This document shows positions 12,094 through 62,302 of a stretch of DNA of 64,000 nt, in pieces (within the stretch, counting starts at the first letter, position 1; each line of letters begins with the position of its first letter). The stretch lies in contig NC_069369.1 of NCBI RefSeq assembly GCF_021730395.1, positions 29,741,250 through 29,805,249 on the forward strand, given 5' to 3'. The notes under the pieces were generated by a model that did no database searches, was not told where the DNA came from, and saw only the letters and a list, made by a program, of their open reading frames with translations. The stretch is from Mercenaria mercenaria (taxonomy: Eukaryota). The position numbers and the translations under genes are program-made.

Positions 12094-12444
<351 letters not shown>

Positions 12445-14329: not shown

Positions 14330-14512
<183 letters not shown>

Positions 14513-15367: not shown

Positions 15368-15619
<252 letters not shown>

Positions 15620-34500: not shown

Positions 34501-35929
34501 CTCCCCCATCCACCCAACAAAATTTTCCCTTTAGTTTTTTTGTCCAATCGAAGTCTTAGAACATTATTAATTATTACTTTTTAAAACACAAGACAGTGAG
34601 CTTTTAAGTATTTTTCTTCTATAGTGTAACATAATTACATATTCAAGACAAAAACTATTTCCATTACAATGTTAATTTTCCCCTATTTAAGTTGTTACCA
34701 CACAAATAAACACTGACTCTTTTACATTTAATTCCTAAGAATAATTATATACAGTAAAATATTATTAGCAAAATCTCAGAAGAACATTACCCTCCCTAAA
34801 TTTCAACAAGATCCTTTCTTTGTACAACATACCAAAACGAATTGTTGAATGGTAATATTTGTACTATTCAAAAAATGGACAAAATCTAAAATCATGAAAT
34901 TCCGTAGTATTTGTAAAAACTGCTTTTTTAGGGGCATAACTTTATGCATTTTAAATTCAATATTATTACTATGAATTCTACAGATAAAATTACCATAATG
35001 TTTAATTTTTTGAAATTTTTAAAATATCACTTGTTTGAATACAATTTCATTTATTGGTGAAAACAAGATTTCCATGAAAATTGCAGTCTTATGAATATTC
35101 ATGATTTCACAGAAATACATGCAAAAACTAGAGTGTAGCAACTTTTATGGCTATTTTTGACTGACATCCCACTTTTTTGGACAAGTTATCACATGAAACT
35201 ATTTTAATAAAAAGGAGGAAAACCAAAATGCACACCTAGAAATTTTATACAAAATGTTCATTATGACATAACTTGTCTACTTAGGTTTATATTAACTGCC
35301 TGGTGTAAAAAATCATTGCAATTATTTAAAGATGAAACTAGAGATAGTATTGGTATTTTACTGCATGTTATAAAGACTTTCAACAAGGTTGGTATGTACA
35401 TCATACACATGTAACCTTTCATGTCTGACTGAGGGGAAAGTAAACAAGTGGGGAAAAAAAAAGAGAGTGTTTTCACTTAAACAAGAGGGTCATAATGGCC
35501 CTAGATTGCTCACCTGTATTTTCGAGCTTAAACAAGCTAGGGAGTGTGCAACATTGGATGAGAACCATACTAAGCGCCAGAACTGGCATCGAAAGTTCCA
35601 GAGGCGGTAGAAGTCAAAGTTTAAACACTACTGTAAAAGCACATATTTTCGCTGGGTCAAAATTTCGTGAATTTGAAATTTTGAGTATGTTTGCAACGTT
35701 TAATATTTGCGAAATTGTTAAAGTGGCATCAAACTTGAATTAGAATTATACTAATTGTAAATATTTACGCGAGGATTAATTTTCGCGAGAAGTAGGGCTT
35801 CTCGATATAGCGAAAATTAAACCCTCGCGAAAGTTTCTGCTTTTACAGTATATGGTTCTTCTGTCTCTAAAACTGGGTGGACAACACACCCACACACACA
35901 CACAGAAAACTGTTTCTTTATAATGGGTC

Positions 35930-38010
35930 TATTTTTACCTCTGGCCGTCCCTAAAAGGGGCCAAGTGCCCTTATGTGTTTGATGAAGATGCATCCCACTA
36001 TTCATGAGAAGTTGATAAAAGGTGTCTTAGACGAAGTTAGAGTTTGGTGAAGATAATCAAGCAGTTCATGAAAAGAAATCCATTCTAGGTATTTCTATTT
36101 TTAGCTCTAGCAGGCCCTAAAGGTGAAAAGAACACCCATTTGAACAAATTTGGGAGGACCTTACGATAATGCTACAGACCAAGTTTGATGAAGATCCAAC
36201 AAGTGGTTTATGAGGTCATTAAAAGATATTTCTATTTTTAGCTCTAGTGGTCATTAATAGGGGCCAAGCTCCCCCATAATTATGAACAGGTATGGGAGGG
36301 GACCTTAGACTGATGCTATAGATCAAGTTTGATGAAGATCCATCAACAATTCATGAGTAGCAGTCATTTGAAGGTAATTCTATTTTTAGCTGTAGCTGCC
36401 CCTGAAAGGGGCCAAGTGCACCGAGTGACCAAAGTTGGAATAGGACCTTATAATGATGATCAATCCAGCAGTTTATGAAAATTAGTCAATAGGTGTTTCT
36501 TTTCTTTACCTATAGTGGCTCCTGAAAGGGCCTAATGCCCCCATTGAATTAAATAATGATGCTAAAGATCAAGTCTGAATAAGATCCATAAAGTAGTTCA
36601 TGAAAGAAGTTGTTTTAAAGGGAGTCAAATGTCCCAATTGGAACAAATTTTGGAGAGGACCTTGCACACCGGACTGGCATTTCCGGTGATTTTACCCATG
36701 CCAGCAAAACCCATCTGGCACCCCCATGCCAGATGACTCTCGTGCTGTTAATGAAAACTAGTGGTTCATGCACTGATAATATATTGTTTATGTAAAATAC
36801 GAAAAAAACAGGTACCATGACAGTTTCTCTCCGTTAGAGTAAGAACATAACGTTACGCTACAAACGATAAAACTTAAGTGGAACTTTGTTATTGTGCGTA
36901 ACACAAAACATCATGACGTCACTTCTGCTTACGCATGTTAATTTCCCGCGCTTTGTGTTCATTCTCTATTATAAGAAATAATTCTACAAAGAAAGTATTT
37001 CTACAGTACTTGTTGTTTGTAAAATACGGTATGCAAGAAAAAATATCAGTCATGTGTTTACGAATCAGATGTATATATCCGTCCCTCGGCCACCTGTGCA
37101 TAGGCGGTAATTCGGCAAGCTTCATTAACGCCCAATGCGCATGTGCCCTCCGGACGGATATTTCTATCCGATTCGTAAACACATGACAGATATTATTAAT
37201 AATGACGCTACACACCAAGTTTGATGAAGATCAATCAAGCAGTTCATGAAAAGTCATTTAAAGTTTTTTTTCTCTACTTTTAGCTCTGATGGACCCTAAA
37301 AATAGGCCAAGCTAAAATATTCGAGCTAACTGGACAGAGGACTATAGTATTACCAGGATGCTTTTGACCAGGCTTTGAACAATTCTGACCTGAAGTTTGA
37401 GATGTCATCTCAAGAAAAGTGAGGACAGACAACAGATGGTGACCTATCACAATAGTCAGCTAAAACGTTAAAATTACGAAAACATCAACAAGTCATAGAG
37501 GCCGAAATGGGCCTTATTCCTTCAACTAAGGAGAACTGTCTTTTTTTAAACCTTGCTTCTCATCATTATTAAGAAGCTCATAGTGTTCTCTCTCTTTTAT
37601 TGTGGCACCCCCTAGAAGTGGCCAAGCAAAACGATTTGAACAAAATGTGAGAGATCCATACAAGGGAGCTACAGACCAAATTTGGTGATTATCTATCAAG
37701 CAGGTCTATTTTTATCTCCAGCAGCTAATAAAATCTGACAAGTGCAATTATTTGAACAAAACTGAGAGAGGACCATACTAGAATACTACAAGGTTTGAAC
37801 ATAATCCATCAAGCAGATCAACATGGAAAGTTGTTAAAAGTTTTTCTATTTTTAACTCTGGCAGTCCCTAAAATCAGTCAAGTACAACCATAAGAGGACC
37901 TTAAAAAGAGGCTACAGACCAAGTCTAGTGATGATCCATCAGGCAGTTGTTTTAAGGTTTCTTCTATTTTTAGCTCTGGTGTCCCCTAAAATCAGTCAAG
38001 CTGAAGCATT
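35930..38010 (+). repeat. Satellite D arrays (35930-36650 and 37205-38010), split by a ~560-bp non-satellite insertion (36650-37205) and carrying a (GACA)n plus atcacaatagtcagctaaaa tail at 37380-37460
   Basis: Tandem periodicity visible directly. The tail motif matches the composite-element tails. Confidence 0.6.
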
Positions 38011-41020: not shown

Positions 41021-42866
41021 TGATTCTAGGTTTTGAGGAAAGAAGTAAAGCAAAATTCTATATTTTATGAAGTCATCAGAATATTCCACCTCACAATCTT
41101 GTACTTCAACACAAATACATTCAAGACAACTTACGAAACAAGCAATTTCTTGTATTTCTTTTTTTTTTCTTCAGTTGTTTTCATGTCAGTTCAATTACTC
41201 ATCTATATAAGCTTTCGTCATTGAGCATCTCCTTACCATGTCAGACAATCAGTCATTAATGTCAAAATTTATCTTACCATAACAAAACTTAACTTTGGAA
41301 CTGCAAAAAATTGGAAGCGTTAAAACTGCTCAGACGTACGGTAAACTGAAATATTCCAAGCATGCGACTGGAAACATCATCTAAGAAATGCAAAAGCTTA
41401 GTGCACTATTATATGTGGCTGTATTACATTGGGCCGCTATAATTATTGATCACGTTATACATGCCAGAGCAGCTAAACATCACGAAATCAATGATAAAAC
41501 ACTGATCTATTAGCGTTTTCTCATCCTCAACAAAGAGCTTGCATAACTTCATGTTGCATAAAAATCTGTTTTCAAATAATACCCATTTCACTCTTAAAAG
41601 ACAAAGGAGCGGATGTTAGGATGACTATGTTTAAATATTTAAATAGAAAATACATAAACTATTGACTAATATAATGCTCTGACGAGCTGACAAGAGATCA
41701 AAAACTTGATCCGGTACTATCATTCAATGTTGATTTTCTAACAAGACCAAACTAATTTCAACTCATAAATTCAAATAAATTTAGTTTAATAGCTAAAAAT
41801 ATTTGAAATTAAACTTCTTCAAGTGGTGTTTTTGTTAATTCAGAAATCAGTTCTAAGGGAAACAACTTGTTGCAGCATTGATTAGTGAATTTTCAATGTA
41901 ACACAAGTTACTTTCCCTTTTTATTCTGGGGAAAGTCATAAAATTGGGGAAAAAATTCTCAACAAAATCATTGTTTTGGGAAATATTTTACATTCTAATA
42001 TTGTTTAAACTGCTCTGTAACTAATTATCTACATATTAAAATTGTCTAAGTGTTTATTAATGCATTAACATATGTAATAATTTTGCCATGCAATACAGAG
42101 CCTCCTACTGGACTAAATATCTCCAGTGTTCTGCCAAGGCTGCTATACCGAGGGAATCTCAATTAAAAGTTACAAATGTTGCACAAAAATTAGCCTTGGA
42201 ACGTCAACTGTCAAGTAACGATAATGCTTGGGATGAATCCGCATTCAGATCGGAACCGTGTACAAATCTACATTCCCTTTTCCTCCGCAAAAAGTCAACT
42301 TCGGTTATGTCTAATTCTGATCCAACACTGAAAAAACATAAGACGATTTTGAGCAGATGTCTACACCAGCAGGCAACAAAATCGTCTAACCTAAAGCTGA
42401 CTGGTCTAGTACTTCATGTGGTGCCCCTGAAAACCCCATAGACAGCTCAAAATCCAATGTTGTACACCATCCCCAACCACTGCCGCCTGGGAAGTTGAAA
42501 GTGAGTCCTGTGACAGCTCAAAATCCATCTACTGTTCCGCACCCATGATCTCAAAAACTGAAAGTTGGCAAAGATCCAAACCACAGAGGGTGCTGAGAAC
42601 TCAAAGTAAAAAAAAGAAAAGAAAATGTGATTGCATATTTCTGGACAGTTGGTTGAAAGATTACCAATTGTAATGGAATAGTGAAGACTTTAATTACAGT
42701 ATTTTTAAAAAATTTTGTTCAAAGATATGTGTCCTAAAAGTTGCTATCCCCAAGATTTTTAAAATGTCCCCACTTTTTTCTTACCAAAGAGACATGTGGT
42801 CCTCAGTATCTCAACTGCAGAATAAGTTAATTATCTTATATCTGTAGATGATGTATATATAATCAG

Positions 42867-45200: not shown

Positions 45201-45849
45201 ATAGGGAGATATCATCCATGTTATTAAAGCTGACTCATTTACCAAACGCACAAGTAGTTACCCTGTGCATATAACAAATGTTAATATCATAAAGGTTGCC
45301 TGACTTACAAATAGTTGCAATAATAGCAAATACGTTATACTTTGAGCTGCGCGATTTACCAAACATGTACATCGGACTATTTGCAAGTTATATAATTACC
45401 AGATGCCGGGAAAACTTTTAAGGACAGGCTAGGTGTTACAAGATAGTTAGTGTGACGGCAAGTGTCCTTTTACCGGATCGCTAGACACCGCTCAAATGTC
45501 TACGTCCCTGTATAATGGTTAGACAGTATAATTTCAAAATTTGGAAGATAGATCTAATAGACAGAGTAGTAACACAGGTTGTTAGTGCTTGATGAACAAT
45601 GAATATTAAATTTACAAGTAAATACTTTTACACACATGCACTCAAGAAGACACTGTTTACTATTGATATACATCACATAATGGTTCTTGCATAAAACTTT
45701 TGCATTCACGTGCAAAATAGCGTTACACTGTTACATCCTTTGTTCTGAATGGCCATTTATAACCAGTATATTTCAGTGCTGCTCTTCAAATAAAGCGTAA
45801 TACTAATCACCTTCAAAATATGGATTGTTATTTTAGGATGTCAATCGCA

Positions 45850-46120
45850 GAATAAGTCCCCTGGAACAGTAATACGGTATTTTCTGTGTACTTTCCGCGG
45901 GATTCCTCGCGCTATTCAATTGAACTCTTCACAAATTCGAAGCCTCGTTATTTCACGTGACGCCGTGACATAATTTTTTTTGCTTCTTTGTATTTCTTTT
46001 TAAGTTTTAATAGCGTTGCATTGATTTTGCACTTAAATACACAAATATTTTGCTGGAGTTGTGCATGGCAGTGCAAATTATTGCAAAAATTTTGAACAAA
46101 ATTGCAATTTGTAAACAAAT
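45850..46120 (+). promoter_or_regulatory. MAEA: Putative MAEA core promoter and 5'UTR: a CpG-enriched segment with an E-box (CACGTG at 45954-45959) immediately upstream of exon 1
   Basis: Locally raised CpG content (ccgcgggattcctcgcgc...cacgtgacgccgtgac) in an otherwise CpG-poor, AT-rich region. Its position relative to the initiator ATG at 46121 supports the call. No TATA box is obvious. Confidence 0.45.
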
Positions 46121-46159
46121 ATGGCGGACATCAAGGCTTTAGAACACCCCACGTTAAAG
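46121..46159 (+). CDS. MAEA: MAEA coding exon 1 (MADIKALEHPTLK)
   Basis: ATG in a reasonable Kozak context (caaatATGG). It ends in phase 0 at AAG|GTTTAT and joins the next exon to give ...EHPTLK|VPYE, matching the conserved MAEA N-terminus. It lies about 170 bp downstream of a CpG-rich E-box segment. Confidence 0.72.
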
Positions 46160-46589
46160 GTTTATTTAAAGTTTTAAATGCTCATGGAACTCTAATATTG
46201 AAGAATTTTTTGATGTTATATATACTGCCATTCAAATAGAAATAGTCGTTTGCGGTTGTTCGTCTTTACAAGAGAAAAGAAACTGCATAAGAACTTGCAG
46301 ACAAGGGACATGCGCCATCCAGGGGTCGTCTCAAAATTATTCATGGTTGTCAAACTAAAAAAACAAGTTATGGTCAGTGGGGCAGCAGACTTTATTTGAG
46401 TTATCAAGGCACTGTGCTGTGTCAGACTGAGACGGGGTTTGAAAGGACTTGCCCTTTCATGTGGGGATAGTCCAATTAGTTTGGTGTGTCATAGGCAATT
46501 TTTCAGTTGTCAACAATGTGGTAGCCTGTGTCTTATTTCCACATCCAGTTAGCTCTAGTAATGAGTTGCGAATTTTTGCATTGAAAATT

Positions 46590-46770
46590 ATTATTAATTT
46601 CTTAGGAACTTGGAGTGAAATGGCTAACATTTTTAGTATAATATTGTCAAGTGATGATGTTGAAACTTTGTAATAAGATTAATCATTATTATTAATTTCT
46701 TAGGAACTTGGAGTGAAATGGCTAACATTTTTAGTATAATATTGTCAAGTGATGATGTTGACACTTCGTA
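46590..46770. repeat. ~85-bp direct duplication (ttattattaatttcttaggaacttggagtgaaatggctaacatttttagtataatattgtcaagtgatgatgttga.act) in MAEA intron 1
   Basis: Two near-identical copies. ORFs 46449..46673 and 46633..46821 are artefacts. Confidence 0.75.
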
Positions 46771-47554
46771 ATTTCTGAAGATTCTGAATGATTTTAACAT
46801 GACGTGCCAAATATATTTCAAGCAAGCAAAATAATAATCAAGAAAGTTTAAATAAGTCTGCTACAACATGATTGTTTTTTAAATGTTTATATTTGATGCT
46901 GCTTATTTTCAAACCCTTGAATAAGATTAGACTTTTTTCATAACAAATAATTTCCTCAGTTGGTCCAATCAACTTAAATTATTTCATTCAGTCAGCCAAC
47001 AACTTCTCATGCAATTAATCACCAATAACATAAATCTTTTTCAAAATGTTTATCTCTGTGAAATCTAGGTTAAGTTGAAAAGTGGAGTGCCAGAGGTAAA
47101 AAACTAGATCACTAGGACAGATCATAGAAAAACACTGTTAGGCCACAATTTGTGCTTGACCTTCATACATAGAAGTTTGTCAGAATGCTTGTCACTCTGA
47201 AATTTAGATAAACTTTGAAAACTGGATTATCAAGGTCAAAAACTTGGTCACTAGGTAAAATCACAGAGAGGCCTAGTTAAACACTAAAATGGCCACATTT
47301 TCTGCCTGATCAATATGATACTGATAGTGTCTGTATTGCTGCAGGAGTTTTGGCTAGTTTTCTCTATATTGCTTTATGGAAACTTTTAAAAATCATCCCC
47401 TCAGAAACAACTGGTCTGATTTCAAAATAATTTGACAGCAATGTCCCTTGGGTGATCCTGTACCAAAGTCCTTTGAAACAATCTGTTTTGTTAAAAACAT
47501 CTCAATATAGAAACCTCCTCTGCCTGAGCCGGATGGCCATAATTCAAAATAATT

Positions 47555-47713
47555 TGAGCCACGCCACGAAAAAACCAACATAATGGCTTTGCGACCAGCA
47601 TGGATCCAGACCAGCCTGCGCATCTGCGCAGTCTGGTCAGGATCCATGCTGTTTGCTTTCAAAGTGTATTGGAATTAGAGATACTGTTAGCGAACAGCAT
47701 GGCTCCTGACCAT
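47555..47713. mobile_element. MITE family A, copy 3 (truncated; second arm incomplete), in MAEA intron 1
   Basis: The first arm and spacer are intact. The second arm ends after gcgaacagcatggctcctgacca. Confidence 0.75.
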
Positions 47714-47839
47714 TACCCCCAACACTTCACTAAATACTTAATTGAGAAAGAAAATATATAAGGATTTGTCTGTCATGTATTTGGGGAGCATACATCTATT
47801 CTTATAATCAATGCAATGTGTAGCACTTATAATTGTATG

Positions 47840-49900
47840 ATATTTTTGTGCCCCCTCCCCCCCCTCCTATTTTTCGTCTGCTGGCTCCACTCCCTATTTC
47901 CAGAGTTATGGCCCCTGAAATAGTCAAAATTGCACATTTTCACTTTGTGACACGCCTAGCTCAAAAAGTATCTGATATAGATTCATGAAACCTTGCATGA
48001 GTCTTAATCGTGATATGAACTAGCGCAGCTCCTACTTTTCATCTCGGTTCGCCCCCTATTTCTAGAGTTATGGCCCCTGAAATAGCCAAAAATGCACATT
48101 TTCACCTTGTGACACGCCTAGCTCAAAAAGTATTAAATATAAATTTATTAAACCTTGCATAAGTCTTTATCATGATATGAACATGCGCACCTCCTGTTTT
48201 TCATCTAGGTCCGCCTCTTATTTCCAGAGTTATGGCCCCTGAAATAGTCAAAAATGCACATTTTCACCTTGTGGCGCACCTAACTCAAAAGTATTACATA
48301 TATCCTTTCCGCAGCCTTAACGTACTAAAACGTATTAGCGTCTGATGGCCCTTTCACGCTTCCGTAGAAACAACATTTATGACACGAAACTTATTTTGAA
48401 AATATTTCTGAAATGTCTAGGTCTGCAGCTCTCAAATACGGTTATATCTTACATCTGAGGCATATACTGACACTCTCAGACAACATCAAAAATGACATTT
48501 TGAGCGATTTGATGAAGTTCCAAAATTATCAATGTACCCTTGGTCCGTTACGGACCCCTGTGGGATTTCTGTTTATCCAGAGCTCATATATTTTTTCATA
48601 GATTAAAAGCTGACATGCTGTACTAAAGCCCAGGTAATTTCAATTCATAATAAAGTGCTGGAAATTGGCTCCCCAATAGCGAAAAAAAAAAAAAAAAAAA
48701 TGTCCACGCGCATACATTTAGACAATCTCATCCATCAGATGTTCGTCAAAATCCCGAGACGAACCTCTGATTTATTTCTGTCGTTTATTTGGTGAGCATG
48801 CGCACTCGTAATTACTACCGGGAGAAGTTTCAGCCAATCAATGTTCGCCACTGTTTGGCACGCCGAATTGAAATTTCAAACAATATGTAAGCAAGGTAGT
48901 TGCTAACGATGGATAAAGTAGATATTCCATGACTGCGATTAATAAAGATTTATTTCTGTTATCCGATGTTAAGAAATTTACCTGAAGAAATAATAATATT
49001 CCTCGTAAGTCGGCATCGATATGAAAGGACGCGGTCATGCTTTTCACGGACGATTTTGATTGGTTCGCTACATTTTGTCGCGAAACGACGCTGATTGGCT
49101 GAAACGTTTTACCTGTAATGTAACCAAACCACAAATATCGGCGAAATGTGCCAGAGGTTCATCCGGGGAACCACGGTAGACCTCTGGTATGCGAGAATGA
49201 CATTTAGACGGTGTGACCCCTGACTATCTACGAATCAAAATGCGGCTTTCGTTTTCAAGTTTAGCATTTCTACTTTCATTTTATTTACTTCCGGAAATAG
49301 CTGAAGGTCGAGTGACGTCATTTTCTGTGTTGTCAAAAACATACGCACGCCTGGCGAGATTGCATAAATATGTGCTGGCCGTCCTAAGGTTATTGATTAA
49401 ACCTTGCATGAGTCTTTATCATGATATGAACTTGTGCACCTCCTAGTTTTTGTCTGCCTCCGCCCCATTTTTTCAGAGTTATGCCCCCTGAAATAGTCGA
49501 AAATGCACATTTTCATCTTGTGACACACCTAGCTCAAAAAGTATATGATATAAATGGATGAAAACTTGCATCCATGAGTCTTTATCATGATATAAATATG
49601 CACACCTCTTATTTTTTGGCTGGCTCCACCCCCTACATGTATTTTTAAAGTTATGGCCCATGAAATAGTCAAAAATGTACATTTTCACTTAATTATGTGC
49701 CTAGCTCAAAACGTGTTTGATGTAAATTCATGAAACCTTGCTTTAGTCTTTATCATAATATGACCTTGCAGACTTGGCAGTCTTCTTGAGTATCTTAGTG
49801 CTTATTACAGAGTTATGGCCCTTGAAATAGCCAAAATAAAGGATTTTTTGTTTGTGATGCTCATAGCTCAAAATGTATATGGCCTAGAATAATGAATCCT
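47840..49900. repeat. Satellite J (~170-bp monomer: ttatggcccctgaaatagtcaaaaatgcacattttcac.ttgtgacacgcctagctcaaaaagtat...ccttgcatgagtctt.atc.tgatatgaac) in MAEA intron 1, interrupted at 48298-49397 by a non-satellite CpG-rich segment
   Basis: Three units precede and about four follow the interruption. The monomer register resumes 8-10 bp after the break point. Confidence 0.7.
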
Positions 49901-50049
49901 TTTCATAAAATGTTTGTTGAGGCTATACCCCCTTAAGACTGCAAACATTGAATTATTGCCCCTTATCTGTGACAAATGTACCTGTGGGGGCACACCCTGT
50001 GTCCTACAGACACATTTTAGTTATTAATAACTTATGTTTTTCTTACTAG

Positions 50050-50235
50050 GTGCCATATGAGCTGTTAAACAAGAAGTTTCGTACAGCTCAGAAAACAATT
50101 GACCGGGAAATTTCCAAGGTACATGGCGCTGGTGGAGAACTAGAAGTATGTCTTCAGAAACCACAGGTCACTATTGGAGAAGTGACAAAGGCGTTAGACA
50201 ATATGGTGGAAAAATTAAAGCTTTTAAAGAGAAAG
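50050..50235 (+). CDS. MAEA: MAEA coding exon 2 (VPYELLNKKFRTAQKTIDREISKVHGAGGELEVCLQKPQVTIGEVTKALDNMVEKLKLLKRK)
   Basis: Plus ORF 50050..50322. Acceptor tcttactag|GTGCCATATGAG, donor AAG|GTAATT. Aligns to human MAEA residues ~24-85 ([20 protein letters not shown]...LKRK). Confidence 0.9.
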
Positions 50236-50570
50236 GTAATTAATACAATGCTTGTTCTTGAAAATAACTTGGGTTTAATGTATAAAGGACATGGTCACTT
50301 AAGACTTACACAGCCTGTATAATTTGTAAAGATTGTCAATTGGTGATAACTGAAAATATCATACATTGTTTTCTACTAGAAAATTTAATTTCTATACTGA
50401 ATTTACTTTTTTTAACAGAAGTATTATATAATTGTATTTAGGTCGTATGCAAGAGCACAGTCAAGGACCACTAAAATATTTGACCAAAGATTCTCCATCT
50501 TTCACAGAATTTATGGTCATTTTTTGGTTGTGGTTGACAGCTGTGTCCATCTTGAAAATTTCAGATTTGC

Positions 50571-50758
50571 TTAACCCTTACCATGTTGGACATGATTGAT
50601 TCAGCCTTTAGGACCAGTGTAGATCATGATCAGCCTGCACATCCATGCAGTTTGATCATGATCTGCACTGTTGGCCATTCAGTCAGTATCTTTTTGGTAA
50701 GCACCCCTTATAACAGTTAATGGTATTGTCCAAATTGAAAGATGGACAAGTTCATTAT
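50571..50758 (+). mobile_element. MITE family B, copy 7 (3' end degenerate), in MAEA intron 2
   Basis: ttaacccttaccatgttggac...gatcatgatcagcctgcacatccatgcagtttgatcatgatc... Confidence 0.7.
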
Positions 50759-51914
50759 ATTCTGTAATTATACAACTATTGCATGCTGTTTGATAAAAAA
50801 AGTTCTTGATAAATTTACTGCATTACGAGGCCTTCAGTTTTTAGCTCACCAGAGCACACAGTGTGTGGTGAGCTTCACTATCAAGAAGAGATGTGCATAC
50901 TATCTTCTTGTTCTGGTCGGATGATTTTTCAAGGAGTTATTGCCCTTTGATTATTCAACAATAGTATACTATGGTACAATTCTTGATGGCGGGTGGGGCG
51001 TATGTTCTCCGTGACGATTTGATGAAAGACATTGTGTCTGAAATCATTCGTCCTCCACCTCTGATAATTCATGTGGGGAAGTTGGCAGTTACTTGCGGAG
51101 AACAGGTTTGTACTGGTACAGAATCCAGGAACACTGGTTAGGTTAACTGCTCGCCGTTACCTGACTGAAATACTGTTGAAAAACGGCATTAAACCCAAAA
51201 CAAACAAACAAACAATTCTTGATGGAGTATTTCTCAGGAACCAATGGTTGAAATTTAGTGAAACTTCATAGGAAGCTTTACTATCAACAAGAGATTGGCA
51301 TATTATCTTAGTGTACCGGTCCGATGATTTTTCACCCAGTTATTGCCCTTTGATTATTCAACAATAGTATACTATAGTATAATTCTTGTCTGGAGTATTT
51401 CTCAGAAACCAATGGTTTGGAATTTAGCCATACTCCATAGAAAGGTTCATCATCAAGAGGAGATTATCTTCATACCAAGTTATTGCCCTTCAACAGTAGT
51501 ATATTATGGTACAGTTCTTGTCCAGAGTATTTCTCAGCAACTGCTGGTCGGAATTTAGTGAATCTTCATTGGAAGCTTTACTATCAAGAGAAGATGAACA
51601 TATTTTCTTTGTGTTTTGGCTGGATGATTTTTCACTCATTTATTGCCCTTTGATTATTTAAACATTAGTTGACTATAGCGCCATCATAGTCGGGAGTATT
51701 GCCTGGAATTCAGCAAAAGTTCATAGGAAGCTTCACTCTCAAAAGGAGGTGTGCTTGTTTTCTTCAATATCAGTTGGAATGAGTTTTCATAGAGATACTG
51801 CCCTATAAACTACTGGTATATGTGCCCAGTCATTAAATTCCACTTTTGTTCTTTTAATATTCAAATTTCGGGGAGCATCCGTCGGTTTTACCGATATTTC
51901 TTGTTTTTATCAAG

Positions 51915-52118
51915 GCTGATGAGAGTATAAATGAAGAACTTGAAGCAGCTAGGATGATAAAGAGGCGTGTTGACCATCTAAAAGAGGCGGAGCATCTTCA
52001 TGAACATACACGCCCCTTATGGCAGAAGAAACGCCTAGATCGTATGTTAGTGGAATACTTCCTTAGGGCTGGTTATTATAACACAGCCCTAAAACTGGCA
52101 CAGCATTCAGAAATTGAG
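51915..52118 (+). CDS. MAEA: MAEA coding exon 3 (ADESINEELEAARMIKRRVDHLKEAEHLHEHTRPLWQKKRLDRMLVEYFLRAGYYNTALKLAQHSEIE), the LisH region
   Basis: Plus ORF 51954..52175. Acceptor ttttatcaag|GCTGATGAG, donor GAG|GTAATTGC. Matches human MAEA KRRIEHLKEH...[29 protein letters not shown]. Confidence 0.9.
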
Positions 52119-52184
52119 GTAATTGCTTTATCATTTTTGAGACATTTCAGGTTTACCTATAAAATTGAAAAATAAAAAGAAATA

Positions 52185-52402
52185 AGCCGCGCCATGAGAA
52201 GACCAACATAGTGGCTTTGCGACCAGCATGGATCCAGACCAGCCTGCACATCCACACAGTCTGGTCAGGATCTATGCTGTTTGCTTTCAAAGCCTATTGC
52301 AATTAGAGAAACCGTTAGCGAACAGCATGGATCCTGACCAGACTGGTCTGGATCCATGCTGGTCGCAAAGCCACTATGTTGGTTTTCTCATGGCACGGCT
52401 CA
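52185..52402. mobile_element. MITE family A, copy 4 (complete), in MAEA intron 3
   Basis: agccgcgccatgagaagaccaacatagtggctttgcgaccagcatggatccagaccagcctgcacatcc... with a matching inverted arm. Confidence 0.85.
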
Positions 52403-52944
52403 AATAGGCTTGCTTTTGACAAAAGTCACAAGAAATGTTGCTATACTCCTAGCATCAGTGATTCAGTATCATGAATGATTCTCAGCAAGTTTTTATCTCA
52501 ATTATTACTAATCACATTTAAAGGAAACTTTACACATTCCGTCCGCAGGATATTACCATCTGGACGAGAAAGGTTCCATATCTCTTGCTCTCAGTTTGAT
52601 GAAAGTATGCCCCATTTTGATCTTTTCAGTAAAATCCTTTTCGTGTTTGTCATCGAGTTAGTATCCTAGTAAGTACAAACCACACAACTGGGTGAAACTT
52701 TGTGCATGCCTTCCCTATGATAATATCAAATGAGTGACAATGGTAAAAAAAATTGGTTACATAATTCTTTCTATCATTTGGATGAAATTATGCCCCATTT
52801 TGTATGTAACTATGTTTCTCAACAAACATGATCTGTTTACGATTGTTAGCGAGTTAGTATCTCAGTAAATACGCATCATAAGTAAATGGTACCTAATACT
52901 TGCCTTTGCCATCATAATTCCAGCAGTATGAACTTAGTTTTCAG

Positions 52945-53040
52945 GGTAGTGGTGGTCTAGTGGTTAAGGTTTTGACAGCTGATCTCAGAGGCTGTGTGTC
53001 GAATTCCCACTGGGGTGACAACCACATATCCACATATCCT
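52945..53040 (+). mobile_element. tRNA-like SINE head (second family: tagtggtggtctagtggttaagg...gtgtcgaattccc)
   Basis: Box A and box B are present, but the ends do not pair into an acceptor stem, so it is not called a tRNA gene. Confidence 0.5.
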
Positions 53041-53289
53041 AATATGAACCAGTTCTGGTTTTTTCCAAGAAACTGACTTTAGAGTGGTTCCTGAAAGCTT
53101 GAAGCTCTCTTAGATTTGTTCAAATGCTTCAGCTTGACTGATTTTAGGGGTCACCAGAAGTAAGAATAGAAAACCCTTCAAATGCCTTCAGACGCCTTTG
53201 AATTGGGGGACATATCTGATTATACAGAAGACTTATTTTGTAATGTTTTGATTTAGCCTTGCGGATTATAAAAAAAACTGTGAAACAAT

Positions 53290-54200
53290 GAATATTCATG
53301 GGGCACATACTTTTTTAGCTCACCTGAGCCAAAGGCTTAGGGTGAGCTATTGTGATCACTCACAGTCCGTCGGCCGTCCGGCGTCCGGCATCCGTCCACA
53401 CTTTCCTTTAAACATCTCCTCTTAAACCACCTAGCCAATTTTGACGAAACTTCACAGGGATGTTCCTTGGATGGTCCTCTTTAAAAATTGTTCAAAGAAT
53501 TGAATTCCATACAGAACTCGGGTTGCCATGGCTACCGAAAGGAAAAACTTAAAAAATCTTCTTGTCCAAAACCACAGATCATAGGGCTTTAATATTTGAC
53601 ATGAAGCATCATCTAGTGGTCCTCTACCAAGATTGTTCAAATTATCCTCCTAGGGTCAAATATGGCCCCGCCCTGGGGGTCACATGTTTTACATTGACTT
53701 ATATAGGGAAAAATTCTCTTGTCCAAAACCACAAAGCGTAGAGCCTCATTATTTGGCATGTAACATCATCTAATGGTCCTCTATGAAATTTGTTCAAACT
53801 ATGCCCCTGGGGCGAAAAGAGGCCCCACCACGGGGGTCCTAAATTTTACATAGAGTTATATAGGAAAAAACTTTAAAAATCTTCTCGTCTGAAACCGCAA
53901 GATCTAGAACTTTGATATTTGGCTTGTAGCATTGCCTTGTGGTCCTCTACCAAGATTATTCAAATTATTACCCTGGAGTGAAAAGAGGCCCCACCCAGGG
54001 GGTCCCAAGTTTTACATAGACTTATATAGGAAAAAACTTTAAAAATCTTGTCTGAAAGTTCAAGGCTTAAGCCTTTGATATTTGGTATGTAGCATTGCCT
54101 AGTGGTTCTCTAACAAGATTGTTCAAATTATGCCCCTGGGGTGAAAAGAGGCCCTGCCCCGGGGGTCACTTGTATGAGTTATATAGGAAAAAATACTTTT
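53290..54200 (-). mobile_element. Composite element, an inverted copy of the 32.4-33.95 kb block (tail plus (CCGT)n microsatellite at 53290-53400, conserved spacer 53400-53560, satellite F array 53560-54190), in MAEA intron 3
   Basis: 53328-53400 is the reverse complement of 33841-33950. 53400-53560 is the reverse complement of 33700-33840. The monomers match satellite F. Confidence 0.65.
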
Positions 54201-56708
54201 AAAATTATCTGATCGTGTTTCCTAGACTGTTTAATTACAATTACCTGATGACACCAAGTAATTAGGGGTCACTTGACTTTGACCTTGACCTACTGAAATC
54301 ATGAACTACTGACCTACTTTTTATGCCCCTGAAGGTGGGCATATTAAAATCGCACTGTCCGTGTGTGAGTCCAAGCACACGATTGGTACCTTAGGTGGTA
54401 GGAGGTGTGGCCTAGGACAATAGAAATCCTTTGTATTGATTCCGTAACCACTTAATTCTTTTGTTCCTTAAATGGTCATTCTATTGTTTTCAAACAATGA
54501 AATGACCACCTAATACCTAAATCGCATGGGTGTGTGTGCGCCCGGTAAATTCTTATCCGGGCTGTAACTCTTCCATCCATATAAGGGATTTTGAAATAAC
54601 TTTGCGTAAATGTGCACCGTAATGGGACGAAGTGTCGTGCGCAAGACCCAGATCCCTTGCTCCAAGGTCAAGGTCACACTTAGAGGTCAAAGGTTAACAT
54701 AGTCTGTTACTGATCTTAAATATTATTAACGGTTAACCCTGACCTACTGACCTACTGACCTACTTTCTTGTTTTTGAAGCTACAGCAAAGAGATTTGGAC
54801 CACCTGTATAATTTTTTAACAGATTTCAGTACTTATCTTGAAGAATATTTACTATGACCTCATCTATTTTTTGTTTGTTTTTAAAGCATTAGCAAAGAAA
54901 TTTGTTTAACCAAACAATTAATCTCAGATGAGCGATATAGGGCCATCATGGCCCTCTTGTTTGGATTTGGAAGTTGAATCATTGAATCTTCAAAATGTAA
55001 TCTCAATGAAAACATGAAATTCCCAAATATCGTGTCTTTAAAATTTGAAATCCACTAATTTATTACCAGTACATGTATATTTTCCATCTGTAACCCTCTA
55101 CCAAAATTGTTCAAGCAATCTGTGAAATTCAGGTGAGTGATATAGGGCCACCATGGCCTTTGTATTTAACAAAAGAATGACTGGTACAGCATGACATCTA
55201 ATTGTGAATGCATTGCTACAGACAAGTATATTTATGCCCCCTTCAAGAAAGATGGGGTATATTGTTTTGCGGATGTCGGTGCGTAGACCAATCATTTTCC
55301 GGATGATAACTCAACAGCACTTGGGGTTAAGATCTTGAAAGTTGATAGAGAGTTTAGTGAAACACGTAGATGGAATGAAAATTTAACAGACTTGTTAAAA
55401 TCAATAAAGAGTGAAAATTATGTCCCTATAATTCAGCTATAATGTTATTTTCATCATCTCCTTATTTTTTGTATGTCTGTGGTATTGTGCCCACTGTCTG
55501 CGAGTTAGACAAATTATGTCTGAAATAGTTGGGAATACATTAGTTTGACACAGTAGGAATTAAGTGCTAGACGTCTTAACATTTATTTCATGATTCATTT
55601 TGTAATATTATTGTGTCTGAAAATCATAAATCTAAGATAATTTCTTAGAATATACTATTTCAGTAGGATTTATTGATGTGACAAATAACATAAATTACAG
55701 AATTTCTCAAAAATCACATTCACCCTTGTCTTGTTGACAGTGCTACTGTCTAAATCAAGCTGCTGATGTTGTTACATAATAAAAACATGGCCAGACTTAA
55801 AAAAATTTAACCAGGTTTTCAAAAAAAAAGATGGTTATTAAATTGGCGAATGTCGTTGGGCGGGCATGTGTACTGCAGGCAGGCTGGCGTGGATGACATT
55901 TGGCTAAAATTTTGTATGTAGCTGGTATTGAAACTTCACACACATATACTCTGTGATAAATTACCAAAATGTAACAATATATTTCTGTCATAGCAAATTA
56001 CTTTACACTAATGCCTGTATCGAACTTGACCTAGATTTTATTGAGATACATACTCTGTATTAAGTTATGTTTTGTTCTAAGAAAAATTATTGTAGTGTGG
56101 TTATCCAGCTTGGCCTAGAATGTTTAGTAATACCTCTTCTTTATAATTATGGTTGACATTGTAGAAAAATTACTCTAATCGAGCAGTCACTATCAGTTGT
56201 TGCAACTTTGACCGACTCTGGAGATGCTATTCTGAACTGACTCATTGTTGAACATGGCTGAACATGGCCTAGATTTTAGAGATACGCACTTCGTTTAATT
56301 TTAGTTTAGTTTTGATACAAAATACTTTAGAATGGACACTGATATTTTCTGCCGTCACACAGAAACCCGACCATAAAGCCATATAGGGTGAAAACATAAT
56401 ACATCCTGAATCTCCAAAACAACAAAAATGTACACTTTAGACCCTTTTGCATCTTATATTCAAACATATTTGTAGCAGACAATTCATTTTGAATGCATGC
56501 AATAGGCACCCCAGCTTCCAAATTTTGTAATGCTCTTGGTGGTGCTTAGATGAGAATCAATACGGTATACTTTTGACAAATTCTTCCTGTAGTTTTCAAA
56601 AAAAAAATCCTGTTGGGTAGTTGAAGAAAAAGGTAGAAGTTGTTCAGTTGATTTTGTAAAATGTGTTAGGCTGAATCTTTTACATAATAAGTTATTCCTT
56701 TGTTTCAG

Positions 56709-56831
56709 GACCTTACAAACATAGACCTGTTTATGACATCAAAGGCTATTGAGGAATCTTTAATCAATCATGAGACAGCCCCTTGTTTGAACTGGTGCTA
56801 TGAAAACAAATCCAAACTGAGAAAATTGAAG
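56709..56831 (+). CDS. MAEA: MAEA coding exon 4 ([41 protein letters not shown]), the CTLH region
   Basis: Acceptor tgtttcag|GACCTTAC, donor GAAG|GTATATAA. Matches human [41 protein letters not shown]. Confidence 0.9.
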
Positions 56832-56940
56832 GTATATAAATTGTTTTAAATACTGGTTGGTTCTTAGTTATATTTTACAGACTATGTAGTAGACATGTTC
56901 AGCTGCAGAGATTACTCAGATTATAAAACTGCCGCTTGCC

Positions 56941-57153
56941 TTAACCTTTAGCCTTCTAAATTTCTCAAATGGACTGGTTCATAATTTAATTTGGGCAATA
57001 CCATTTGTTAATGGAAGGGATTTTCACTGAAAATTTACTGTCTGAATAGCGAACAGTGCAGACCATGATCAGACTGCACGGACGTTCAGGCTGATCTTTG
57101 TCTGCACTGGTCGCAAAGGCAGAATCACTTGCCGCCAGCTGACTAAAAATTAA
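56941..57153 (-). mobile_element. MITE family B, copy 8, in MAEA intron 4
   Basis: ttaacctttagccttctaaatttctcaaatggac...ccgccagctgactaaaaattaa. Confidence 0.75.
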
Positions 57154-57530
57154 GCAGCCAGTCAGTTAAATTTCTAGACTGACTTTTTGTACTAATTTTA
57201 ACTTGGCTTAAGTAGTCACCTGCAGTAAACAGCCAGATTGTGTTACTCACACAGTTTGCTGCTTAACACAGTTCTGACTGTATATTGCTTTGCACCATAT
57301 TGGAAGATTGCTTTTTGATTTATAGCAGTCCTCGATGAATTTGTTGAATTTTGGACAAGAGGTTAGAAAGTATTACAAATAATAGTTATGTAAGCAAGTC
57401 TTAACATGGATATGTCAGTTATTGTTGTGTAGATTTAATGAGAACAAGCCATAAGAAATTAGTTGTAAAATTCAAGTACATAATGATACCTATCAGCAAT
57501 TCTATATATCAACGTATATATCTTTTTCAG

Positions 57531-57607
57531 AGCACCCTAGAATTTAAGCTTCGTCAACAAGAATTTATTGAAATGATAAGAAGTAACTGCCGTCTAGATG
57601 CTGTCAG
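57531..57607 (+). CDS. MAEA: MAEA coding exon 5 (STLEFKLRQQEFIEMIRSNCRLDAV-)
   Basis: Plus ORF 57438..57629. Acceptor tctttttcag|AGCACCC, donor GTCAG|GTATGCTG ending in phase 2. Matches human [25 protein letters not shown]. Confidence 0.9.
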
Positions 57608-58419
57608 GTATGCTGTTCTTTATTTCTGAAACATCTTTTTCACTGAAAGCTTTGTCTCATTCCCTTTAATGGATCTGTAATAGAAAATTGGGTCCAAATC
57701 TGAAAGGTTGAAACACTGGATTCTTTATACAACTAGGGGCATTTAACTTTTATTATACCCATATCAGTTGATGTTCCTTGATTGTATTATGCACTGATGA
57801 TGAATCTACTTGAAATGTCTATGAAAGGCGTATGCTAGAATTCCCTGTATATGAGATGGGCGAAATTTTTACAAATAATAGAATTTCTTCAAAGTTTGGA
57901 TATTGAAGGACAATCTTAAAAAATCTTGAAAAATAATTATCTGCCCTTGAAAACAGCATTTTTTTTCAGAAAATGCCATTTTCAAGGGCAGATAACTCTT
58001 TTTCAATACTGGTGACCTATGATTTTTATTGCATATTTGTTTCTTAGATGATTGTCCTTCAGTATCCAAAGTTTGAAGAAATTCTATTATTGGGAAAAAT
58101 TTTGCCCGAATTCTTGCGTAGGCCTTTAAGTAATAACTACTGAAAAGCCAGAAAGTTTTTCAGGCCCTCCAAGGCCAAGTTCTTAAGATGTCTGACTTTG
58201 AAACACTTTTCCCGCTGACCTCTGCACTTTGGGCCCAATTTTGGATGTAGAACTATTTCCTATAAAGAATGTATCTAGGAGGCTTGTTGCAGATTGCTGG
58301 TTTTACCCAGATGCCTGCCTGCACCTGTATTGGTATGACTTTAAATGTAACTAAACAAACAGAGAAATTAAAATTTGTCATTGATTTCTGATGATGTATT
58401 TTCTTTGTTCTGTTTACAG

Positions 58420-58531
58420 ACATGCAAGGAAATATTTCAGTAATCAGATAGAGGACCAACACTTGAATGAGATACAGAGAGTTATGGGATTGTTAGCATT
58501 TTCTCCAGACACACTTATTTCACCATATAAG
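58420..58531 (+). CDS. MAEA: MAEA coding exon 6 ([38 protein letters not shown])
   Basis: Plus ORF 58391..58672. Acceptor ctgtttacag|ACATGCAAGG, donor ATAAG|GTAATCTG. Matches human [37 protein letters not shown]. Confidence 0.9.
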
Positions 58532-59275
58532 GTAATCTGTCCTTCATGGCCTTCCTTAAAGAAAAAACGGAGGTTGCAGTCAGCTTGTAGAAAATCACCA
58601 GCTTCAAGGGAGAGGGGTTGGGGAGATCTCAGTATCCCTTTGGACACTTGGTCCCTTTTAGGGGTTGCTTGAGCTGAAAATAGAAAAAAACATTTAAATG
58701 ACTTTTCCTCATGAACTGAACTGCTTGATGGATCTTCATAAAACTTGATCTACATCATCATTGTAAGATCGTCTTCCAGTTTGTTTAATGATGGCATTTG
58801 CAAGGTTGAAAGTTTTCCAGCATATGCCACAGGGTTTAGTAGGGGTGGGTGGGTGGTGGGGTAGGCTTCTCCTGGTCCGACTTCAGTATTCCTCTGAGGT
58901 GTAAATTTTGTCTTTTAAGTCTAAAAATGTATTTGTTAGCAGATGTGCATTCTCTACAAGGAGATAGCCCGTTACAATGTGCAATTTCAACCAGATGAGA
59001 CTTTTTGGGATCGACCATTCTCGAAAATTACCAAATGACTGCCAGATTTCGGACAAACAAGATTGACCTTGAATTTCTTACTTCATTAAAATTATTTTCA
59101 TTCTATTTTTAGTAATATACGTAAAATTTTCATTCCAGATTTCATGCCCGTCAGTAATGTATTTTTATGACCTGTTCTCTGGATGAAGGTCCTAGAGGAC
59201 CGAAACTGGTAGATAAATAAATGATAGTCTAAACATACCTGGATGTGTAATTCCACTATTAACCTTTAATTATGT

Positions 59276-59292
59276 CCCCCCCCCCCCCCCCC
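59276..59292 (+). repeat. C17 homopolymer at the boundary of the inverted satellite G element
   Basis: Read directly from the sequence. Confidence 0.95.
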
Positions 59293-60110
59293 TAGAGGAG
59301 ACATTGTTTTTGCCCCATCCGTCCGTCCGTCACAATTTCCGATCATAGTAGATGACCCCTATTGATTTTGGGGGTCACTCTGTTAAAGGTCAAGGTTAAA
59401 GGGGCCTGAACATGCAAAACCATTTCCAATCAATAACTTGAGAACCACTTGACCCAGAATGTTGAAACTTCATAGGATGATGGACATGCAGAGTAAATGA
59501 CCCCAATATGCAAAGTAAATGACCCCTATTGATTTTAGGGTCACTCTATTAAAGGTCAAGGTCACAGGGGGCCTGAACATGGAAAACCATTTCCGGTCAG
59601 TAACTTGAGAACCACTTTATCAAGAATGTTGAAACTTCATAGGATGATTGAACATGCAGAGTAGATGACCCCTATTGATTTTGGGGTCAATCTATTAAAG
59701 GTCAAGGTTGCAGCAGACAGAACATGGAAATCCATTTCCAGTCAATAACATGAGAACCATTTGACCTAGAGCCTTCAAACTTCATAGGGTAAAAGGACTT
59801 ACAGAGTAGATGACCCCTATTGTTTTTGGGGTCATTCCATCAAAGGTCAGTGTCACAGGGGGCTGAACATAGAAAACTCTTTCCAATCAATAACTTAAGA
59901 ACCACTTGATCCAGAATGTTGAAACTTATTAGGATAATTAGACATGCTGAGTAGATGACCCCTACTGATTTTGGGGTCACATGATCAAAGGTCAAGGTCA
60001 CAGGGGCCTGAACATGGAAAACCGTTTCCAAGCCATAACTTTAGAACCACTAAGCCCAGATTGTTGAAACTTAGTGGGATGATTGGACATGCCAAGTAGA
60101 TGATCCATAT
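59276..60110 (-). repeat. Satellite G array (inverted relative to 30560-31250), five or more ~150-bp units, preceded by C17 and a (CCGT)n microsatellite, in MAEA intron 6
   Basis: Monomers …gatgacccctattgattttggggtcac…aaaggtcaaggtcacagggggcctgaacatgg…. Confidence 0.7.
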
Positions 60111-60970
60111 TGCAGCCAACCATCAGTGTCTCTTTGACTTTTGCTCATGTCCCCTATTGACTTCTTGCCTATACGACTATGCATTGGGGGAGACATGCAC
60201 TTTTCTACAAAAGCATCTTCTAGTTTCTATTGTGTTCATTTAAAACAAGAATTCTGATTTACTTGATAATTATTGCCAGCCAATGAAATAGTGGCTTTTA
60301 GGTTCAGAAACCAAAAAAAGTTGTGAAAAATGAATTTTTGTCTTGCATTGTAAAATACAAAATATATAGAAAATGCTACAAAAAGCAAATGAAGATAGGA
60401 AATGTCGTCTGAAGTTTACAGGCACAGTGGAAAATGAGTGATTAAAATTAATTGGGCTAAAAAAAGTTCATTACTAAGAGTAGCATTTTCACAGATTGAT
60501 ATTTTGGTGATTAGAAACAGTAATTGTTGAAAAGGCATATCCAGCACTTGAAACTTGCTACTTACATGAGCTTGAGGTAGCATCTGCCCACCTGGCCCCC
60601 TGGCCAAGGCATTGCCCTTAGAGAGTATGGATGTGAAAGAAATACTGTGAAATCATTGATATTCATGAGGGGCAAATTTTCTTGGATTTTGTTGTTGCAT
60701 CTTTCCATGAAAATATGTCCAAACTAATAAGCAAGTTTTTCATTTCTTCTATCCTTAAAACGTGCAATCCACAAATTCATATCTTGGTGAAATCACAAAA
60801 TTTTATGCTCACAAAATGAAATGATTGACCACATTTTTTAACAAAACACACTATTTTTCAAAATTTTCTGCAAGAAATATATTTAAAAAAATTGAAGTCT
60901 GTAATTTTAACTTGGTAAATAAACCCTTCTATTAATTTTGTCAGAATTGTGCTGTAAGTTACTTATATTT

Positions 60971-61200
60971 GAGCCGCACCATGAGAAAACCAACATAGTA
61001 GGTTTGCGACCAGCAAGGATCCAGACCAGCCTGCGCCTCTGCACAGTCTGGTCAGGATGTTCACTAACAGTTTCTCTAATTGCAGTAGGCTTTGAAAGCG
61101 AACAGCATGGATCCTGACCAGACTGCGCGAATGCGCAGGCTGATTTGGATCCTTGCTGGTCGCAAACCCACTATGTTGGTTTTCTCATGGCACGGCTCAT
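60971..61200. mobile_element. MITE family A, copy 5 (complete), ending 22 bp upstream of the MAEA exon 7 acceptor
   Basis: gagccgcaccatgagaaaaccaacatagtaggtttgcgaccagcaaggatccagacc... with an inverted arm ending cacggctcat at 61200. Confidence 0.85.
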
Positions 61201-61222
61201 ATTTTCTTTTGATATTTTGCAG

Positions 61223-61356
61223 GACTTATTAGACCAAGAAAGATGGGCTGAACTGGTTCAACAGTTTCGATATGAGAATTTCAAGTTACATCAGTTGAAT
61301 AATGCCTCTGTGTTCACCGTCACTTTACAGGCTGGATTATCTGCCCTTAAAACACC
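61223..61356 (+). CDS. MAEA: MAEA coding exon 7 ([44 protein letters not shown]-)
   Basis: Plus ORF 61145..61399. Acceptor ttttgcag|GACTTATTAG lies 20 bp after the end of a MITE-A copy. Donor ACACC|GTATCC ends in phase 2. Matches human [45 protein letters not shown]. Confidence 0.88.
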
Positions 61357-62095
61357 GTATCCTTTTATTAAGAGACTTGAAATCACTTTCACATTGTAAA
61401 TTCTTTTAATTTGAAGAAGCTTCATCCTCTGAAAATAATGTGTAGATTGGTACATGGGTATCTCTTCTCTAGTAGATGGGCAAGTATCCTACACTGTAGC
61501 TTGCTGTGTGCTTATAAACACTCTTAGTCAAATGTTTGTAACACAATACAAAAATTATCAAGAAAACCTTCCAAACTATAAAATCCAAGTGAAAAATGTC
61601 TCTAAACCCAACACAAAAAATAAAAACTACAAAATATTATTTTTAAGCAACTATAGTAGTCATACTAATTGTCAAACTGGTTTTGACTGCATATCCAGGA
61701 GTGATGTCGCTATGCAGGGGAGATTACTAAGATTGACTGCAAACTGATCTGTCGGTTTCTTACTGAATTTTCGATTTCTTACTGAATTTTCGATTTTTAT
61801 TGTCAAAAGGATATTTGTCATGAATTTTGATGTCACTGATGCATTTTCAAGTACCTTCTTTTAAGTTTTATATTTTAAAATGTTTACAGAGATTGGAAAA
61901 GTATTCCTTTATTCAACATTCTCATTCCATTAGAGGTACTGCACTACAAAAAAGGGCCGCGAGAACTAAAAATAGAAAATATTTTAAAAGATAGGATTGA
62001 AACGCAATATCTTGAACTCACTTATCTCAAAATTAAAGCTATTGCGAAGACATTTTCAAGTCCCATCCCAAAAACACATGCACAAAATACCATTT

Positions 62096-62302
62096 GAGCC
62101 GCGCCATGAGAAAATCAACATAGTGGCTTTGCATCCGTGCAGTCTGGTCAGGATCCATGCTGTTCGCTTTTATAGCCTATTGGAATTGGAGAAACTGTTA
62201 GCGAACAGCATGGATCCTGACTAGACTGCGCGGATGCGCATGCTGGTCTGGATCCATGCTGGTCGCAAAGCCACTATGTTGATTTTCTCATGGCGTGGCC
62301 CA
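62096..62302. mobile_element. MITE family A, copy 6 (internal deletion in the first arm), in MAEA intron 7
   Basis: The termini are intact. The first arm lacks the accagcatggatccagaccagcctgc segment. Confidence 0.8.

Follow-up and report, generated by a model that had tools for sequence, protein, structure and literature searches.

The first intron of MAEA in Mercenaria mercenaria holds a short tandem array that is broken by about 1.1 kb of CpG-rich, promoter-like DNA, hereafter called the island, and this raises the question of where the island came from and whether it acts as a promoter inside the gene. A preliminary description of the locus had proposed an alternative internal MAEA promoter, the promoter of an unannotated intronic transcript, or a promoter-bearing insertion that had landed in the satellite. 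In the 64,000-nucleotide stretch of DNA that was analysed (the window), the last of these three options fits best, given that the array keeps its monomer phase across the island and that MAEA intron 1 of neither Ruditapes nor Mactra has anything that corresponds to it. We consider it probable that the island is a lineage-specific insertion of non-coding, composite DNA that carries promoter-type sequence. Lineage-specific intronic insertions are an ordinary kind of finding; the feature itself is real and statistically unusual.

MAEA lies on the plus strand, and its exons in the window translate identically to the Mercenaria protein XP_045189332.1. The two exons that frame the island are as follows:

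46121..46159, plus strand: coding part of MAEA exon 1, MADIKALEHPTLK, followed by a GT donor; aligns to the Ruditapes (L001) and Mactra (L002) loci.
50050..50236, plus strand: MAEA exon 2 (VPYELLNKKF...LLKRK), which holds the ATG (MVEKL...) that starts annotated isoform X2.

Intron 1 extends from 46160 to 50049 and contains the whole of the island, in agreement with its earlier placement. The canonical MAEA promoter is found just 5′ of exon 1, at approximately 45.0-46.1 kb, with a CpG o/e of 0.9. It contains none of the motifs seen in the island, and a local standard for the appearance of a clam promoter is therefore lacking. Upstream of MAEA, and head-to-head with it, is the minus-strand gene CtBP, whose exons lie at 7192-15592.

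The array and the insertion that splits it are composed of three parts:

47892..48302, no strand assigned: left part of the host array; its 2.5 monomers of 162 bp stop at monomer position 88.
48303..49390, no strand assigned: non-coding insertion of 1,088 bp with no second copy in the window; boundaries ±1-2 nt.
49391..49901, no strand assigned: right part of the host array, resuming at monomer position 90 (49392), with approximately 4 monomers of about 172 bp.

The array breaks at monomer position 88 (48302) and picks up at position 90 (49392), with the loss of at most one base. Because the monomers stay in phase on the two sides of the gap, about 1,088 bp must have been placed inside one monomer, and the array is indeed interrupted mid-monomer as had been reported. 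What the same report had called a satellite is a short array, with approximately 6.5 monomers of 162-172 bp at 47892-49901, and it is the only array of its family in the window.

For comparison, the window was aligned with the loci that hold MAEA in Ruditapes philippinarum and Mactra antiquata. All MAEA exons align in both species. The Mercenaria promoter and exon 1 (45733-46176) align over 456 bp with positions 9613-10056 of the Ruditapes locus, at 69.5%. For Mactra, the alignment covers a short block of the canonical promoter (86%) and exon 1 (90%). The island aligns nowhere in either locus except at A-runs. The host array is also absent from both species, in which intron 1 measures 4.7 kb (Ruditapes) and 1.3 kb (Mactra). 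Judged from these alignments and from its position within a monomer, the island reached the Mercenaria lineage after the host array.

In terms of composition, the segment had been described as comparatively CpG-rich, and the interval 48298-49397 has a CpG o/e of 1.30, which is the highest of all 1.1-kb windows in the 64 kb. The insertion consists of two unlike parts:

48303..48700, plus strand: segment A, 398 bp, CpG o/e 0.91, ending in AATAAA-N27-A19.
48701..49390, no strand assigned: segment B, promoter-like and CpG-undepleted, 690 bp, GC 41.7%, 44 CpG, o/e 1.46.

The best 690-bp window elsewhere in the 64 kb reaches a CpG o/e of 1.11, and the surroundings are far lower: the 5′ part of intron 1 has a value of 0.25 and the array to the right of the insert one of 0.19, compared to a mean of 0.45 (sd 0.18) for the whole window. 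Segment B shows no TpG/CpA excess, with o/e values of 1.08 and 0.98 compared to 1.27 and 1.24 window-wide. With respect to the definition of Gardiner-Garden and Frommer, the island exceeds the length of 200 bp and the o/e of 0.6; its G+C content is only 39.5% (segment B, 41.7%; window, 36%), and it is therefore no CpG island under the vertebrate rule of GC >50%.

Methylated CpG decays faster than other sequence, and we estimate that a neutral divergence of about 1% should start to erode the 44 CpGs of segment B if they were methylated. In invertebrates, the germline gene-body methylation of broadly expressed genes leads to the loss of CpG, and CpG o/e serves as a proxy for methylation (PMC3249382). 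The strong CpG depletion of the surrounding gene body implies that the surroundings of the island are methylated in the germline. The undepleted state of segment B could be explained in two ways: it would be either very young, or kept unmethylated and active by bound factors (NF-Y, ETS, CREB).

The boundary between the two segments is formed by an AATAAA signal at 48649-48654 that is followed, after 27 nt, by a run of 19 A at 48682-48700. This arrangement resembles the 3′ terminus of a polyadenylated RNA that has been retro-copied. As in processed retrocopies, a non-coding stretch closes with a poly(A) signal and, 27 nt further on, an uninterrupted A19. Unlike in these, the A-run has insert sequence on both sides, and neither a target-site duplication nor a parent gene was found. 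With respect to the marks of a LINE-mediated retrocopy, the A19 adjoins segment B and not host DNA, and the bases at 48701-48715 are not repeated before 48303. An A-run of this length is not unique in the window, as another one of 19 nt is found at 29714-29732. The signal and the A-run (48649-48700) had been missed in the preliminary description.

Segment B contains an inverted duplication and a cluster of motifs of the kind found in Pol II promoters:

48752..48840, plus strand: left arm of the inverted duplication, with the exact 14-mer GTTTCAGCCAATCA at its inner end (48827-48840) and an NF-Y box at 48832-48840.
48796..48803, minus strand: NRF1-like half palindrome GCATGCGC, from the motif scan.
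49057..49065, minus strand: third NF-Y-type CCAAT box (ATTGG at 49059-63), 35 bp from the right-arm box.
49078..49084, minus strand: E2F-like TCGCGAA, from the motif scan.
49092..49169, minus strand: right arm of the inverted duplication, with the exact 14-mer at its inner end (49092-49105) and an NF-Y box at 49092-49100.
49287..49294, minus strand: consensus ETS site ACTTCCGG within the palindrome ACTTCCGGAAAT, from the motif scan.
49313..49320, no strand assigned: full palindromic CRE TGACGTCA, one of 2 in 64 kb compared to 0.42 expected.
49363..49370, plus strand: TATA-like CATAAATA, 43 bp past the CRE and approximately 20 nt short of the insert's right edge.

The inverted duplication is imperfect, with arms of about 85 nt that are 251 nt apart, and its score of 22.5 compares to 9.3±1.4 in shuffled sequences. 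When the 14-mer was left out, the score of the remaining arm flanks was reached by 3 of 500 shuffles. A perfect core (14/14) in arms that are about 70% identical is not significant by itself (p ~0.1 by our own estimate), and the 14-mer has 2 matches in the window compared to 0.06 expected. The remaining repeats within the island (I1/I2, D2, D8 and D11) do not exceed chance. The two inverted 14-mers had been reported as exact, which they are, and the position given for the first was right; the second had been placed at 49093-49106, one base from its true position. The inverted repeat extends beyond 14 nt, and the pair forms only the inner ends of the longer arms.

Three CCAAT boxes had also been reported. 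The island contains five CCAAT pentamers, and three of these, including the third box as reported, fit the NF-Y consensus RRCCAATSR. All three contain the 7-mer CCAATCA, which occurs 13 times in 64 kb with 3 of the occurrences within 265 bp in the island. The CRE is present at the position originally given for it. With a set of seven housekeeping-promoter motifs, segment B gave 7 matches compared to 0.58±0.8 in 1000 dinucleotide shuffles, none of which reached 7, a contrast that is inflated because the set was picked after the sequence had been read. These are 7 of the 37 matches in the whole window, and together with the CpG content they indicate that the promoter-like make-up noted earlier is real and unusual.

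Segment B was compared with Pol II housekeeping promoters of the NF-Y/ETS/CREB/NRF1 type, which belong to the CpG-island class and are often bidirectional. It shares with them the motif cluster, the undepleted CpG, and inverted CCAAT boxes about 250 bp apart with RRCCAATSR in both orientations. It differs from them in its GC content of about 40%, in its intronic location within a repeat array with no flanking exon or gene found, and in its lack of conservation in related clams. Taken together, these features make it somewhat probable that segment B is a promoter by origin. That it is presently active as a promoter is doubtful on the same evidence.

The segment had further been likened to bidirectional or cell-cycle promoters on the basis of its paired inverted boxes. 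The CCAAT boxes at 48832-48840 (plus), 49057-49065 (minus) and 49092-49100 (minus) do have the two orientations of a bidirectional NF-Y promoter, and the distance of 35 bp between those at 49059 and 49094 falls within the spacing of about 31-35 bp of G2/M promoters. In the search for divergent first exons beside the island, no frame had a homologue and the only ATG...GTAAGT candidate was at chance level, and no CDE/CHR (TTYGAA) lies downstream of the boxes, the only TTYGAA in segment B being at 48875 (minus), about 180 bp off. Because neither flanking exons nor an adjacent CDE/CHR were found, the label describes a resemblance only. The exon candidate was rejected as not significant, since one of its kind arises in 8.6% of shuffles:

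48966..49010, plus strand: speculative mini-exon of ATG plus 13 codons, MLRNLPEEIIIFL, with GTAAGT at 49005, in phase with MAEA exon 2.

The island was also searched for coding and RNA homology. The open reading frames that had been pointed out at 48838..49134 (minus) and 49213..49446 (plus) exist, and, as had been stated, have no homologues in Pfam or among proteins. All stop-to-stop frames of the island of at least 28 aa, searched as a concatenate against 5.8 billion proteins, gave nothing at E≤0.01, and the five longest frames had no match in Pfam. No RNA family was found with Rfam (gathering threshold for the whole window; E≤10 for 47.8-49.9 kb), and no tRNA or tRNA-derived SINE head was found with ARAGORN. 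A mitochondrial or viral origin of the island was rejected, as no frame showed any coding similarity.

The main rival explanation is that the island is a copy of a young, uncharacterised family of non-autonomous mobile elements, for example a Helitron-like element with captured fragments. The island would then be CpG-rich only through recent insertion, and its promoter motifs would be those of the element itself or of captured DNA. We regard this as unlikely. At the left junction the host reads ...CATATA and the insert begins TCCTTTCC..., so that a 5′-TC start stands between host A and T; at the right junction ...AAGG(T) is followed by T(T)ATTG, and the final bases of the insert are ...CCTAAGGT. 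There is no clear target-site duplication at the junctions, at most an ambiguous 1-3 nt (TA/TAT). A clean insertion of this kind, with the 5′-TC and the A/T insertion point, is what a Helitron with captured host fragments would give, and the patchwork content of the island is a further shared feature. The internal poly(A) run as in captured retrocopies, the nesting in a transposon-type array, and the complete lack of CpG decay also agree with a mobile element.

Against this reading, the 3′ CTRR and the GC-rich hairpin of a Helitron are absent from the insert, the last 62 nt of which fold at -3.6 kcal/mol (z +1.28 compared to shuffles). The insert ends show no terminal inverted repeats, with a match of 8/13 only, and the sole significant inverted repeat is internal. 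The flanking duplication of 2-10 bp of TIR elements and MITEs is not present. The TG...CA ends of LTRs or solo LTRs are likewise absent together with their 4-6-bp duplication, as the insert starts with TCC and ends with GGT. No frame matches any transposon protein. Neither a second copy nor a fragment of the island was found in the 64-kb window or the two related clam loci, while some different repeats of the window do have counterparts in Ruditapes. Membership in the Helitron, TIR and LTR classes was each rejected on these hallmarks.

A second rival holds that nothing was inserted and that the island is anonymous DNA lying as a spacer between two related arrays, both belonging to one Helentron-type element. 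In bivalves, short arrays of 160-180-bp units are typically carried as central repeats by Helentron-type non-autonomous elements, and in oyster such arrays are sometimes split by anonymous DNA of up to 1.2 kb (PMC7492417). The host array resembles the Cg_HINE, pearl and DTC84 elements in its short run of 140-180-bp monomers (PMC7492417), a likeness in unit length and array size. The arrays of that family have mostly up to 5 units and are dispersed in euchromatin, and the host array has approximately 6.5 units and is intronic (PMC7492417). The left and right parts do differ in period (162 and 172 bp) and in divergence, and a length of up to about 1.2 kb is known for such interruptions in oyster elements, about 5% of the Cg_HINE_10_13 elements being affected (PMC7492417). 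In contrast to the arrays of the Cg_HINE type, which are split by anonymous DNA, the array is here split inside one monomer with the register kept, and this marks the island as an insertion, unlike the oyster interruptions. An exact continuation from position 88 to position 90 would arise by chance in about 3% of cases, and the CpG o/e changes abruptly at the junction, from 1.46 to 0.19. A spacer is therefore very improbable.

Still less probable is an ancestral origin, with the island as a conserved internal promoter or regulatory element of MAEA, or else a role as an alternative promoter for the neighbouring CtBP gene on the minus strand. Its motif content is promoter-like, isoform X2 needs an alternative 5′ exon, and CtBP does lie head-to-head upstream. 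In both Ruditapes and Mactra the canonical promoter can be aligned, yet the orthologous intron does not contain the island, which is therefore not an ancestral MAEA element; the alternative internal promoter put forward earlier is not supported in this ancestral form. For CtBP, a candidate first coding exon is located at approximately 16.82-16.88 kb and a CpG-richer stretch at about 19 kb, both about 30 kb from the island, and the position of this exon at about 16.85 kb makes an alternative CtBP promoter unlikely.

An assembly artefact or a contaminant joined into the array would account for a single-copy piece with a composition sharply unlike its flanks and homologues in none of the searches, but is the least credible explanation because a chimeric join would not place both junctions at adjacent positions of one monomer, and because the island has no bacterial-type open reading frames, no match to plasmids or phages by blastn, and no match in two exact-pattern scans of metagenome contigs and one of viral contigs. 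The one clam contig checked from the JGI metagenome data was from Ruditapes, so that these scans have little bearing on copy number in Mercenaria.

The preferred reading, a lineage-specific insertion of composite DNA, would involve the following course of events. A piece of 1,088 bp was probably pasted without target-site duplication into a monomer of the short transposon-type array after the split from Ruditapes and Mactra. Its left 398 bp would be the tail of a retro-copied polyadenylated RNA, and its right 690 bp would be a housekeeping Pol II promoter by origin. Because the poly(A) run lies mid-insert and not at a host junction, segments A and B most likely lay side by side at a donor locus and were copied from it jointly, as DNA; segment A was most likely retroposed beside segment B elsewhere, with the two later copied into the array. 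The route of copying could have been, for example, filler in double-strand-break repair, or capture. As no donor locus was found, we infer that the piece was copied from another locus.

The consequences of the insertion for MAEA depend on whether segment B is active. NCBI lists a predicted MAEA isoform X2 of 326 aa (XP_045189333.1), which starts at MVEKL within exon 2 and must therefore use some other 5′ exon; this is the one, indirect, hint of present promoter activity. If segment B is active, the spacing from the CRE to the TATA-like sequence would predict a plus-strand start near the junction of the insert and the array, at about 49.39 kb, although a variant poly(A) signal is an equally good reading of the TATA-like CATAAATA. 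Rightward transcripts from this start would run into exon 2 without the ATG of exon 1 and may be translated from MVEKL, which would match isoform X2. Since X2 could equally use an alternative donor within exon 1, the link between the island and this isoform is only a hypothesis, and it is improbable that the island is its source. The fuller proposal, in which a recent, methylation-resistant promoter module now acts as a new internal promoter of MAEA and yields the truncated isoform, is a long shot of the same order.

If the island is inert, it is merely a young insertion that could serve at most as a presence/absence marker. If it is active, it would show that a CpG-rich promoter can withstand gene-body methylation in a mollusc, and the locus would be a dated case of a gene gaining an alternative promoter and a shortened isoform through the insertion of DNA, the dating being provided by the absence of the island from Ruditapes and Mactra. 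Were the fuller proposal true, the birth of a promoter by insertion would have been caught in the act in an invertebrate with gene-body methylation.

CtBP (7192-16882, minus strand) and MAEA (46121-63965, plus strand) are arranged head to head in the window, a neighbourhood that is the same as that of CTBP1 and MAEA at human 4p16.3. The candidate first coding exon of CtBP, which consists of MENGKTFQPVKRPRLDVPAT followed by GTAAGT, is located at approximately 16822-16882 on the minus strand, and a CpG-richer stretch with an o/e of approximately 1.1 is found at approximately 19.0-19.8 kb of the window.

The head-to-head interval contains a non-coding block of approximately 230 bp (41319-41546), which precedes MAEA exon 1 by 4.6 kb and corresponds to positions 2821-3052 of the Ruditapes philippinarum MAEA locus. 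The block is 88-91% identical between Mercenaria and Ruditapes, and its conservation between these clams exceeds that of the MAEA exons. It lacks a long ORF, has no Rfam match, and was not found in the 10-kb flank compared at the Mactra antiquata MAEA locus. CCAAT and TATAAT-like boxes are present on its minus strand. Candidate identities for the block are a conserved enhancer, an ncRNA gene and a 5′ exon.

At 35782-36942, also within the CtBP-MAEA interval, E2F-like sites at 35782, 35825 and 36942 form a looser cluster, accompanied at 36914 by the only other occurrence of TGACGTCA in the window; this stretch may be a further regulatory region. A T19 run at 29714-29732 equals in length the A19 of the promoter-like island in MAEA intron 1, with which it has nothing else in common.

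Just upstream of the tandem array that hosts the island is one copy of a dispersed, MITE-like repeat of approximately 170 bp. Matches to this repeat occur in both orientations in the window (47546-47712, 52173-52406, 60965-61205 and 62092-62295) and also in Ruditapes, at 74-82% identity (25131-25314 and 26653-26720 of its MAEA locus). A second tandem array with units of 157-166 bp occupies 53311-54193, in a downstream intron of Mercenaria MAEA, and its relatives at the Ruditapes locus (11943-13148 and 17782-18494; 65-77% identity) include copies in MAEA intron 1. This array family is shared among venerid clams, in which it occupies different introns. The periodicity of GGGCGG at 32450-33562, which recurs at intervals of 156-159 bp over most of the stretch with one gap of approximately double that length, suggests a third tandem array. 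The GC content of this stretch is 0.38-0.42, with positive GC skew.

A 1,156-bp "metagenome" contig (Ga0499543_0376366 of JGI metagenome 3300049158) is clam host DNA and matches exon 2 of Ruditapes philippinarum MAEA, together with the introns on either side, at 96.5% identity.
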